53,572 nt of DNA from a virus (lineage: Duplodnaviria > Caudoviricetes): IMG/VR virus record IMGVR_UViG_3300031705_000005, positions 1 to 53,572 of that record, one strand, 5' to 3'. The translations under genes were made by a program, and so were the position numbers. The notes below the pieces were generated by a model. That model made no database searches and was not told the origin of the DNA. It was given only the letters and a program-made list of their open reading frames with translations. Shown one piece after another: positions 2,996 to 4,949 of the stretch. How positions within the stretch are numbered: position 1 is the stretch's first letter; the number at the start of each line of letters is the position of its first letter.

Positions 2996-3271
2996 ATGAA
3001 AATAACAGAAAATCAATTAGCAGCGTTACAACGAATGTGTGATTCAGATGGTGCTTATAATTGTGATGGGTATCGTATAGTGAGGTATGGTGTGGATGTA
3101 TTCCAATTAGAATTAGGAACGGGTACATACGCAGTTCCACAAGTATGTGGAATCAAGCGTGATACAAAGTTACCTATTAGCATTCAATCAATACTCAGAC
3201 AATTATACAATAGCTGGGAACGAACTCCATCTAGATTAACTGATAACACAGAGCAACCTTTAGAATTATGA
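2996..3271 (+). CDS. hypothetical protein
   Basis: 91-aa ORF. Confidence 0.65.
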   Translation: MKITENQLAALQRMCDSDGAYNCDGYRIVRYGVDVFQLELGTGTYAVPQVCGIKRDTKLPISIQSILRQLYNSWERTPSRLTDNTEQPLEL

Positions 3272-3405
3272 AGATAACAACACAAAGTATATGTGGGCAG
3301 ATTTATATAATCCCTACTATAAAAATAACATATGATAAATTCCTTAACGGAGATTATGAAGTGATATTCGTTTGGTATAAAACCGCATTGGTAATATCAT
3401 TTTAA
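3268..3405 (+). CDS. small hypothetical protein (45 aa)
   Basis: ATGA overlap; MKITTQSICG...LVISF. Confidence 0.55.
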   Translation: MKITTQSICGQIYIIPTIKITYDKFLNGDYEVIFVWYKTALVISF

Positions 3406-3529: not shown

Positions 3530-3721
3530 ATGGAAAATAACAAATTTGAAGAGCAGGTGTTTTGGAAAGATGGATTTAGTGGGGAAGCCGAAGGTGGAAT
3601 GCACTTCCGTTCATTTGATTTAAACAAATTCATTAAGAAGGTCGAATCCGCTGAAGAAAATGGTGAGGTCGTAGGGATTAAGTTTGAAGGTAATAATTTA
3701 GAATTAATCATTAAAAAATAA
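3530..3721 (+). CDS. hypothetical protein
   Basis: 63 aa, first ORF after promoter. Confidence 0.7.
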   Translation: MENNKFEEQVFWKDGFSGEAEGGMHFRSFDLNKFIKKVESAEENGEVVGIKFEGNNLELIIKK

Positions 3722-3724
3722 CAT

Positions 3725-4015
3725 ATGAAATCATTTAAAGATTTAACATTCAAACCTCATCAGATGGGTGAGGGTATTCAAGCTCATTATGTATTCGATA
3801 ATGATTACGAAATTAGTGTTGCAGCTGGGAAGTTTTGTTACTCAACACCAAAAGCTGAAGTTCCATTAGGGGCATATACCGCATTTGAAGTAGCAATCTT
3901 TAATTCAGATGGTGATTTCTGTACAGGTGAATTATGTGCTTCTACTGATGATGTTGTAGGTTGGTGTAGTAGAACTGATATCGATAATTTGATGGAAATA
4001 GCACAAGAACAATAG
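3725..4015 (+). CDS. hypothetical phage protein
   Basis: 96 aa with FEVAI / DDVVGW motifs. Confidence 0.75.
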   Translation: MKSFKDLTFKPHQMGEGIQAHYVFDNDYEISVAAGKFCYSTPKAEVPLGAYTAFEVAIFNSDGDFCTGELCASTDDVVGWCSRTDIDNLMEIAQEQ

Positions 4016-4043
4016 GTTAAACCAATGACCAAACGTGATGAAT

Positions 4044-4514
4044 GATTCTTAATTGATGATTAGCGTTAAATAAAGGTAGAATATAAATTGTGTTAAAGTA
4101 GATTAAGTTCGAATATATACTGTTTGGTATGTGCATAATAAATCTACCAAGTGTACCAACTGTATTGTAATATGTTGGATAAATAAATTTATAGGATGCT
4201 CAATTTGCGAGGGAAGGCTTACACAACCCCTGCACCAAAGGACAACTGTTAAGACAACCATTTGAGAGTTTAGTGTGGGTAAAGTCACAGGAAGCTAATT
4301 TATTAATACACTTAGGAGTTTACAGCAAGAGATAATAGTAAAGCTGATTAAATTGAGATTAAGGTAAAGGTTAACCTCTCATTCATGCAGTAACCTCGAA
4401 AGACCCGAAAGATTATCTCGTGACCATTTATAGTAGTGATAACCAGAACAAAGCTAAATAGCACAAAAGGTTATAGGAGATGCTAGCTATTATAGATGGT
4501 GCTAATAAAGAATC
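4044..4514 (+). ncRNA. Putative large structured non-coding RNA (~470 nt), family unknown
   Basis: No credible ORF; end-closing helices 4044-50/4508-14 and 4059-65/4500-06, many internal helices and two potential pseudoknots; an internal domain is duplicated at 9563-9662. Confidence 0.7.
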
Positions 4515-4516
4515 TT

Positions 4517-4614
4517 AATTGTTAATAACTTTTGAAAATAAACTGAAAACCATTAGGAATTTCAATTTAAATTGCGTATCTTTATTATATAATAAGAAAG
4601 GGGCAGAGTTGAAT
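4517..4614 (+). promoter_or_regulatory. Early promoter repeat (near-identical to 15013-15110)
   Basis: TGTTAATAA 4520, TTAGG 4553, 19 nt, TATCTTTA 4577, conserved TAATAAGAAAGGG leader. Confidence 0.8.
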
Positions 4615-4634
4615 CTAATTAACAAATATAAATT

Positions 4635-4949
4635 ATGAACAAAATAGAAAACTATTCACTTCTAAATGGAACAAGCTTTCATGGTAGTGTAATTAAAACA
4701 ACACCAAATGCTTTAATCAAATTAGCCGAATCACTTGGTGGGGATTATAATTCTGATAACGGTGGTGATGATAAAACTAATTTCGATTTTGGATTTGAAA
4801 CTGATAATGGAATTTCGTTCTCAGTATATGATTGGAAAGAATACAGGTCATTAGACTTGTCCGAAGTGGTAACGTTCCATATAGGAACTCACTCAAAGAT
4901 GGATGGGATAACGGCTAAAGAGGAACTTACAAATACATTAAATAAATAA
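4635..4949 (+). CDS. hypothetical phage protein
   Basis: 104 aa with FSVYDWKEY and FHIG motifs. Confidence 0.75.
   Translation: MNKIENYSLLNGTSFHGSVIKTTPNALIKLAESLGGDYNSDNGGDDKTNFDFGFETDNGISFSVYDWKEYRSLDLSEVVTFHIGTHSKMDGITAKEELTNTLNK

Follow-up and report, generated by a model that had tools for sequence, protein, structure and literature searches.

A probable structured RNA of about 495 nt in a marine myovirus, with a conserved core and exchangeable modules

The question raised by this locus is what occupies the interval between two open reading frames (ORFs 3725-4015 and 4635-4949) in a fragment of a marine myovirus, 29% complete, whose entire analysed stretch of 53,572 nt (IMG/VR record IMGVR_UViG_3300031705_000005) we call the window. 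The baseplate genes of this phage are of T4 type, and a baseplate gene is nearest to those of Microcystis phage Mel-JY01 (48%) and Flavobacterium phages (40%). An earlier note on this DNA, made from the letters alone, had described an ORF-free gap holding a single large ornate non-coding RNA on the + strand, possibly of a new class. The gap is as free of ORFs as the note had said, with + strand frames of 44 aa (4131-4265) and 39 aa (4519-4638) only and - strand frames all of 61 aa or fewer, and every complementary segment that it had listed is present at the coordinates given for it. A promoter-like repeat lies 3' of the proposed RNA, at 4517-4634, and has six further copies in the window.

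The earlier note had named two outcomes that would speak against an RNA, namely a lack of covariation among homologues and folding no better than that of dinucleotide shuffles, and the two tests disagree. The minimum free energy (MFE) of 4016-4634 is unremarkable on the + strand (z +0.41, with 13 of 20 dinucleotide shuffles folding equally well) and no better than chance on the - strand (z 0.05), which counts against an RNA; covariation speaks clearly for one. Since the RNA would fail the MFE test, the question had to be decided by comparison with relatives, and this comparison indicates that a structured RNA gene is really present in the gap, on the + strand. The strand is indicated by conserved G-U pairs (for example, in 12 of 14 sequences at one pair of helix P2) and by model matches that fall on the + strand only. 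We therefore think it very probable that 4014-4508 (+) encodes one structured non-coding RNA, some 495 nt long, which belongs to an uncatalogued family of large phage RNAs. None of the sequencing runs listed as carrying the window DNA is recorded as RNA.

Collinear relatives and the conserved core

A search of IMG/VR with the pattern TTATCTCGTGACCATT returned 40 loci, 30 of them distinct, and 19 of these 30 have conserved blocks in the same order as the window; the remaining 11 comprise seven members of one coding family and four chance matches. Two metagenome members, L281 and L275, share the block order, which gives 21 other contigs in total (19 from IMG/VR and 2 from metagenomes). L281 is nearly identical to the window and has another insert in slot 3. 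The 13 members with a recognisable 5' hairpin measure 342-497 nt, and an nhmmer profile built from these full-length sequences picked out, in addition, 29 significant stretches among 2.7 Mb of loci (E up to 0.0036); every one lies in a phage contig of the family, and one of them (L033) is a copy of the window region. The same profile search revealed tandem copies in L317. The window itself is among the sequences used to build this profile and the two covariance models described below, R1 and R2. Among 80 relatives of the window phage, collected through a neighbouring phosphoesterase gene, we found neither similar DNA nor the core of module A within 4 kb of that gene, so that the distribution of the RNA is patchy. 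A tRNA or tmRNA is present in 6 of 23 family loci, over the stretch covered for each locus, and one member (L310) is embedded in an island comprising 22 tRNA genes and a permuted tmRNA gene.

The features of the RNA gene, all on the + strand, are listed here by position in the window.

4014..4508, +, whole RNA gene, about 495 nt; the nhmmer profile of 13 full-length relatives (window included) aligns to 4014-4508
4015..4030, +, Pa, 5' hairpin GGTT [AAACCAAT] GACC, whose AAAC loop is conserved; 4-bp stem present in all 13 full-length relatives
4033..4066, +, H2 region, recognised by eye and uncounted; in relatives a GTGATTA...TAATCAC helix with a variable tip
4075..4148, +, Pb, helix GGTAGA (4075-4080) / TCTACC (4143-4148), enclosing slot 1 (4092-4138)
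4147..4154, +, P-LR, 5' strand CCAAGTGT of a long-range helix; partner at 4308-4316
4156..4178, +, Pc, hairpin CCAAC / GTTGG; full 5-bp stem in 18 of 19 relatives
4182..4304, +, module A in slot 2, 123 nt; 134.2 bits with model R1, the sole R1 copy in the window
4308..4316, +, P-LR, 3' strand ACACTT(A)GG, followed by invariant AGTTTACAGCAA
4329..4419, +, slot-3 helix, GAGATAAT (4329-4336) / ATTATCTC (4412-4419), holding module B (interior 4337-4411)
4420..4503, +, long 3' hairpin, with base GTGACCATT / GATGGTGC, then 4425-4437 / 4486-4498, a variable tip, and then the 3' tail TAATAA

The 5' end of the gene coincides with the stop codon of ORF 3725-4015, and its 3' end is GGTGCTAATAA. Its scaffold runs in the order Pa, H2, Pb with slot 1, AGTGTACC and Pc, slot 2, ACACTTAGGAGTTTACAGCAAGAGATAAT, slot 3, CGTGACCATT with the 3' hairpin, and GGTGCTAATAA, and the window carries all the blocks of the family in their order (Pa, Pb, AGTGTACC and Pc, ACACTTAGGAGTT..CAGCAAGAGATAA, the slot helix, CGTGACCATT, the 3' hairpin and GGTGCTAAT). 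Across 28 tested pairs in a plain MAFFT alignment of the 13 members, 97.4% of cells are paired as against 89.0% in shuffles, and 10 of the 28 pairs show compensatory changes where 3.4 are expected; none of 500 shuffles reached this count, and slid controls gave at most 56%.

The helix that bears most on the nature of the locus is P-LR, which RNAalifold found on the plain MAFFT alignment of the 13 members. All cells of its eight pairs are paired in the 13 sequences (100%), three pairs are compensatory and one of them is divided between CG (7) and AU (6), in an alignment that was not fitted to any structure. The 3' hairpin, which in the same 13-member alignment extends to GTGACC/GGTGC, has 16 pairs with 97.9% of cells paired and five compensatory; in a second alignment 6 of 12 pairs are compensatory. 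The four-pair stem of Pa occurs in five versions among its 13 members (GGTT/GACC, CGTT/GACG, AGGT/ACCT, GGTT/AACC and GGTC/GACC), with two of the four pairs compensatory in the plain MAFFT alignment, and Pc likewise occurs in five (CCACC/GGTGG, CCCTT/GAGGG, CCCTT/AAGGG, CCCTC/GAGGG and the CCAAC/GTTGG of the window). For Pb, a script recovered six or more of seven pairs in 10 of the 13 relatives, and the other three, the window among them, read GGTAGA/TCTACC by eye; its versions include GATAGA/TCTATC, GATAAGG/CCTTATC, GATAAAC/GTTTATC and GATAAAG/CTTTATC. The H2 region of the window is divergent and reads, by eye, ACGTGAT...ATTAGCGT. Comparative analysis thus shows an RNA with a conserved core, consisting of Pa, Pb, P-LR closing the Pc domain, the slot helix and the 3' hairpin, and with variable arms at the helix tips.

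Among the individual helices proposed in the earlier note, five were borne out and about half were wrong. CCAAC 4156/GTTGG 4174 is Pc, with compensatory changes, and CTCAA 4199/TTGAG 4262 and TGCGAGGG 4206/CCCTGCA 4228 are helices P1 and P2 of module A, again with compensatory changes. The 13-bp helix 4425-37/4486-98 is the one with 6 of 12 compensatory pairs in the second alignment of the 3' hairpin. The pairing GAGATAAT 4329/ATTATCTC 4412 reappears as GUAGUUA/UAACUAC in the Cellulophaga phage phi14:2, its invariance in window-type relatives having been pre-selected by the search pattern. The proposed pairing of the two ends of the gap (4044/4508 and 4059/4500) found no support, as the 5' partner is TAATCAC in relatives and pairs locally with GTGATTA. 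Nor was there support for GTCAC 4284/GTGAC 4420 or the pseudoknot 4217/4273, whose bases are taken up by pairings with better support (P3, the pseudoknot of the P2 loop, and the lowest part of the 3' hairpin), and GTAGATT 4098/AATCTAC 4141 competes with the conserved Pb (GGTAGA 4075/TCTACC 4143).

Two further pairings were considered and rejected. A pseudoknot of the Pa loop with UAGG/AAUG of the a4 block forms 52 of 64 pairs, a value reached by 43 of 2000 shuffles with two rows mis-extracted, and it clashes in window-type RNAs with the better supported P-LR. An alternative from RNAalifold, AGATAA of the a2 block with TTATCT, has one-sided changes only, in contrast to the compensatory ones in Pb.

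Modules A and B on several carriers

Module A, which fills slot 2 in the window, is predicted to fold into four helices and a pseudoknot around a long single strand, and module B has a second, free-standing copy in the window. The elements, again all on the + strand, are as follows.

4182-4189/4297-4304, +, P0 of module A
4199-4203/4262-4266, +, P1 of module A
4206-4213/4227-4234, +, P2 of module A
4274-4278/4285-4289, +, P3 of module A
4216-4220/4292-4296, +, pseudoknot of module A, P2 loop GGCTT with AAGCT
9566..9659, +, free-standing copy of module B beside a tRNA-Gln, with closing stem AAAGGGG/CCCCTTT and then a T run; outside the large RNA

The invariant single strand of module A (4235-4260) is 26 nt long and A/C-rich, and reads CCAGAGGACAACCGTTAAGACAACCA in most members. 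Pairing extends to 93.3% of module A cells in 14 sequences (67.4% in shuffles), and compensatory changes affect 25 of its 29 pairs, a count that none of 500 shuffles attained (slid controls at most 44%); the alignment consists of window-like copies fitted to model R1, which favours structure somewhat. R1 recognises all other module A variants (48 matches, 49 sources).

Copies of module A were found by several searches of different yield. A blastn search of phage records gave one match, of 73 nt and 82% identity, in the crAss-like phage cr126_1, where it falls in an unannotated gap of 120 nt between two tRNA-Lys genes and has compensatory changes in two helices; the same kind of search with a group-2 module A against 50,697 phage records gave zero matches. 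Scanning for the core pattern AGGACAAC..TTAAGA.AACC returned 26 loci in IMG/VR (17 distinct, 16 of them true), 12 loci in genomes (2 true) and 75 loci in metagenomes (58 distinct). Scans with 15-mers yielded mostly chance matches in coding DNA, with 2 of 31 loci true in one case and 2 new true ones among 82 loci in the other. A fixed expression identified 46 distinct copies of module A, window included.

These copies sit in varied surroundings, and 14 of the 46 have a tRNA or tmRNA within 300 nt. One directly follows a tmRNA (L061), and another lies within the intervening segment of a permuted tmRNA gene (L285). According to the intron mode of ARAGORN, the module A core replaces the anticodon loop of a tRNA-Leu-like gene in L046 and L058, and five more cases were recognised by eye; ARAGORN names the near-identical genes of L046 and L058 Leu and Lys, so that the tRNA assignment is unreliable. 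Cellulophaga phages phi4:1 and phi17:2 likewise carry the core among their arrayed tRNA genes, the phi4:1 copy lying between tRNA-Thr and tRNA-Val. Within the large RNA the module changes position: it is found in slot 2 of the window and of L281, in slot 1 of L275 and in slot 3 of L242, at the tip of H2 in L240, and in a 5' slot of both L290 and L289.

Several interpretations of module A were tried and rejected. Clustering of the ORFs within 4 kb of the 46 copies revealed no protein family in more than four loci, and a conserved protein partner was discarded on this ground. The idea of P2 as a mimic of a tRNA-Ala or tmRNA acceptor (G3-U70, ACCA) was dropped, given that the CCA varies (CACAAG, CAACAG, CAACAA, CACTAA), and so was that of the invariant strand as a tmRNA-like tag frame, because TTAAG/TTTAG variants shift the stop codon between frames. 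A tRNA intron is at odds with ARAGORN intron bounds that differ between the Leu and Lys assignments, and its removal would leave no anticodon arm. The fold of HDV-like or theta ribozymes was set aside since the helix order differs (by eye).

Module B is about 90 nt long, and its two copies in the window (4329-4419 and 9566-9659) are 84% alike. Further copies, in L222-L225, begin 5-8 nt after a tRNA and have differing closing stems that covary. The earlier note had suggested a pseudoknot between AGGTTA 4368 and TAACCT 4391, and these letters are invariant in 4 of 4 copies of module B. A B-like stretch also occurs in phi14:2, inside an unannotated tmRNA (Rfam 46 bits, E 7e-16; ARAGORN tag GSSVQKLAMVA), after its tag frame.

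Exchange of both modules is visible between close strains. In 4 of 4 runs of marine metagenomes we found contigs with forms that skip exactly 4180-4304 and so lack module A, and one contig of run X8 is identical to the window across 3900-4179. Some metagenome contigs carry other inserts in place of 4337-4411, the interior of module B, and module B of the window sits where L242 has module A. The comparisons thus show modules A and B as autonomous folds, predicted to be pseudoknotted, that also occur on other carriers and are swapped between close strains.

Relation to a phi14:2 transcript and to known RNAs

A relaxed blastn search gave weak matches of the gap in the cultured Cellulophaga phages phi4:1, phi17:2 and phi14:2. 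For phi14:2, Drobysheva et al. (bioRxiv 10.1101/2020.03.07.982082) describe rightward transcription of the g004-g005 and g005-g006 intergenic regions at a level that exceeds that of most genes, is seen at the earliest time point and does not fall afterwards; the g004-g005 transcript is reported there as an abundant early long non-coding RNA, to which the preprint attaches neither a structure nor a function. We found that R2, a covariance model that represents the 3' domain and is based solely on 14 sequences of the window type, matches phi14:2 (L303 906-1082) over its full model length with 51.7 bits and E 1.6e-10, E-values being rough because of a shortened calibration. This is the sole match in the 100-kb phi14:2 genome, at 3185-3361, and g005 appears to be the phi14:2 ORF 3590-3910, which would place the match in the g004-g005 junction. 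R2 gave 27.1 bits for L242 and 22.6 bits for L240, and zero matches on the whole records of Mel-JY01, Flavobacterium phage immuto, phi4:1 and cr126_1.

In phi14:2 the slot helix (GUAGUUA/UAACUAC) and the 3' hairpin are retained with different letters, and CGTGACC and GGTGCTAATAA are retained as such. By eye, phi14:2 also retains a 5' hairpin with AAAC in its loop, a helix of H2 type, and P-LR as TGTGTTGT/ACAACACA, and the flanks of module A in L290, L289, L240 and L242 share blocks with both the phi14:2 g004-g005 region and the window, also by eye. The full-length sequence profile did not reach the phi14:2-type RNAs at E <= 0.01 in the 2.7-Mb search and gave them E 0.0066 at best in a 40-kb search. 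As the sequence profile misses phi14:2, the link rests on R2 for the 3' domain and on the blocks recognised by eye for the 5' half. The two RNAs are alike in having variable arms in the same places, and unlike in that phi14:2 has other slot inserts, a diverged 5' half and a crAss-like phage as its host genome, as opposed to a phage with T4-type baseplate genes. By analogy with the phi14:2 transcript, the window RNA would be made early, in abundance, and be stable through infection. The 21 collinear contigs, the covarying P-LR and the R2 link to this transcript all agree with the single large + strand RNA of the earlier note.

Searches with models of known RNAs left the gap unassigned, which is in keeping with a possibly new class, as had been suggested. 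Rfam 15 on the whole window at gathering score gave four tRNAs only, all outside the gap, and Rfam on 3900-4750 at E <= 10 gave one chance snoRNA match only. The models of GOLLD, which we take to be Rfam RF01998, and of ROOL, presumably RF03087, had no match in the gap at E <= 10 or in eight family loci at E <= 1. The Rfam models tmRNA and tmRNA_permuted did not match in the gap, ARAGORN found nothing in it, and ARAGORN on 3901-4700 with introns of 0-400 nt allowed found no tRNA or tmRNA. Group I intron, hammerhead, twister, hatchet, pistol and HDV models of Rfam likewise had no match in the gap (by model search only). By model search, then, the window RNA is not GOLLD, ROOL, a tmRNA, a tRNA, a group I intron or a member of a known ribozyme family.

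In kind it resembles GOLLD and ROOL, as a large ornate phage RNA. GOLLD is described as a large ornate phage RNA that is often encoded close to tRNA islands and whose 3' region is conserved, whereas its 5' region varies and can hold tRNAs; ROOL is described as an RNA of phages and prophages with many pseudoknots and no known protein partner (PMC12286853). The likeness to GOLLD extends to the family member L310 in its tRNA island; unlike GOLLD, which exceeds 800 nt, the window family measures about 340-500 nt and most of its members lie away from tRNAs. ROOL is similar in size, but the window RNA has different helices and conserved blocks. Free-standing modules A and B are comparable with rnaC and rnaD of phage T4 as small RNAs encoded among phage tRNA genes; they differ in that rnaC has a T-arm and rnaD ends in CCA, both of which the modules lack, and R1 had no match in the rnaC/rnaD region of T4. 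In contrast to tmRNA and tRNA-like scaffolds, neither an acceptor/T-arm domain nor a tag frame is present in the window RNA. Theta (minimal HDV-like) ribozymes adjoin viral tRNAs in gut phages, as free-standing module A adjoins them, yet module A is about twice as long, has its ends joined by a closing stem and has a different helix order (PMC10879173; helix order compared by eye). We found no description in the literature of the fold or of modules A and B; parts of the family may figure in the list by Fremin et al. 2023 of 10,006 structured RNA candidates from viruses.

Alternative readings and possible roles

The locus was initially read as a succession of small RNA genes or cassettes independent of each other, co-transcribed and cut apart like a tRNA array, with no functional large RNA, because modules A and B occur alone elsewhere (in cr126_1 and phi4:1, and B after a tRNA). 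The 14 of 46 module A copies near a tRNA or tmRNA, the loss or replacement of either module in close strains and the non-significant MFE of the whole region are points in its favour. That reading was overturned by the scaffold family, P-LR and the relation to phi14:2, and we now regard it as unlikely. Between the modules, the scaffold has the same order of blocks in all 21 other contigs; the modules themselves are placed at the tips of helices, and A changes slots on a scaffold that stays; and the phi14:2 relative is reported as a long non-coding RNA (bioRxiv 10.1101/2020.03.07.982082). The main argument is the covarying helix that spans 4147-4316 across module A: since P-LR encloses both Pc and module A, it would tie the two halves into one fold. 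Cleavage of such an RNA into pieces may still take place after folding.

Two other explanations would do without a free-standing RNA gene. It is highly improbable that the conservation acts on the DNA, as it would if this part of a T4-like hyperplastic zone were a hot spot of recombination or a region of regulatory cassettes whose inverted repeats served recombination or protein binding. Near-identical strains do exchange modules, and the promoter-like repeat next to the gene recurs in the window; against this, the helices persist through G-U pairs, which are not complementary on the other strand, the stems covary while their sequences differ between genomes, as is unexpected for DNA repeats spread by copying, and the phi14:2 relative is an abundant transcript (bioRxiv 10.1101/2020.03.07.982082). 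A long structured 5' leader or 3' trailer controlling a neighbour gene, or a hidden gene for a small protein, is scarcely credible, even though the region begins at the stop codon of ORF 3725-4015 and includes a 44-aa GTG ORF (4131-4265). The neighbour genes differ between members, no family being shared by more than 4 of 46 loci; the 44-aa ORF crosses module A, where substitutions track base pairing rather than codons; and the downstream gene is preceded by a promoter-like repeat of its own.

GOLLD, ROOL and OLE are examples of large ornate RNAs, a rare kind whose roles are still being worked out. For the single structured RNA preferred here, we tentatively propose that the core could be a nuclease-resistant scaffold displaying modules, and that the displayed modules would bind a host factor belonging to the tRNA, tmRNA or translation machinery, or titrate it; this is one possibility among several. 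A binding or decoy role fits best because the module is autonomous, has an invariant strand, is borne by carriers that would be abundant and stable, and has no partner gene. Self-assembly of the RNA into a larger particle, as in GOLLD and ROOL, would follow by analogy with these and is rather unlikely, and putative catalysis by one of the modules is very doubtful.

More speculatively, and with somewhat greater doubt than attaches to the display scaffold, phages might shuffle RNA domains as proteins do. The core of the large RNA, tRNA-Leu-like bodies, tmRNA genes and tRNA-array spacers would then be interchangeable carriers for a limited repertoire of autonomous RNA modules. The putative active part would be module A, whose invariant 26-nt strand is held by a pseudoknot, and it would act as either a new small ribozyme or a decoy against a host factor or defence acting on tRNA or tmRNA, and the large RNA would be a platform for several modules, made in bulk from the first minutes of infection.

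A new family of large ornate RNAs would bring with it a host and a phage in culture, Cellulophaga baltica and phi14:2, that are genetically approachable and for which abundance of the RNA has already been reported (bioRxiv 10.1101/2020.03.07.982082). RNA domains appear to move between large RNA, tRNA-like bodies, tmRNA genes and tRNA arrays, and the function of each module is for this reason testable separately. Module A also accounts for unannotated gaps in the tRNA arrays of sequenced phages, among them the human-gut crAss-like phage cr126_1 and Cellulophaga phages phi4:1 and phi17:2.

Module A in tRNA-like genes and tRNA arrays

The core of module A, a pseudoknotted side module of the large RNA, was also found at other phage and metagenome loci (L-numbers) within tRNA-Leu-like genes, and unannotated copies of the module lie in tRNA arrays, including that of a human-gut crAss-like phage, cr126_1.

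L046 10333-10491: tRNA-Leu-like gene with module A core
L058 3188-3345: tRNA-Leu-like gene with module A core
L001 2997-3111 (cr126_1 53736-53850): module A copy in tRNA array
L304 2449-2560 (phi4:1): module A copy in tRNA array

The tRNA-Leu-like carriers, with more cases identified by eye at L241, L261, L262, L282 and L302, have a 7-bp acceptor stem, a class-II D-arm, a T-arm and A73, with a 12-bp helix bearing the module A core in place of the anticodon arm and conserved GGAGACAGAGATGTTAT at the position expected for the long variable arm. The tRNA array of phi17:2, a Cellulophaga phage like phi4:1, likewise contains an unannotated copy. At L208 (~9940-10010), a 20-nt insertion interrupts the single strand that is invariant in other module A copies.

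The window itself carries a tRNA (10099-10173; Rfam tRNA, 46.7 bits) whose anticodon was left unassigned ('tc') by ARAGORN, and its anticodon loop may be odd.

tmRNA genes and mini tRNA-like units

Module A and a module-B-like segment also occur in tmRNA genes, and at two loci module A is followed downstream by units reduced to an acceptor stem and T-arm.

L285 1316-1707 (-): permuted tmRNA gene, called by ARAGORN and scoring 66.8 bits against Rfam
L303 1752-2223 (phi14:2 record 4031-4502): tmRNA, unannotated in the RefSeq record
L062 1798-1904 (-): mini tRNA-like unit
L041: mini tRNA-like unit

In the permuted gene, module A lies within the segment separating the acceptor piece from the coding piece. 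The tmRNA of phi14:2, a cultured Cellulophaga crAss-like phage, scores 46 bits against Rfam, 1 bit below the gathering score, with an ARAGORN-predicted tag of GSSVQKLAMVA and a module-B-like segment 3' of the tag frame; it is probably the second abundant 'long non-coding RNA' of this phage, at the g005-g006 junction. The L062 mini unit weakly matches tmRNA (22.5 bits).

Surroundings of the large RNA

Window 4517-4634: intergenic promoter-like repeat, immediately 3' of the large RNA
Window 4566-4593: sigma-70-like site within this repeat
L317 238-1167 (-): large RNA, 2.5 tandem copies (nhmmer)
L322 11550-11664: large RNA, partial second copy (nhmmer)
L242 2050-2129: sub-threshold RAGATH-1 hammerhead match (42.2 bits), directly upstream of the large RNA
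L325 2303-2357: sub-threshold type-P1 twister ribozyme match (39.8 bits), 1.4 kb upstream

The large RNA may share its neighbourhood with self-cleaving ribozymes. Other copies of the promoter-like repeat occur in the window at 366-429, 12396-12443, 12688-12804, 15013-15110, 15160-15210 and 15708-15788, with 75-96% similarity.
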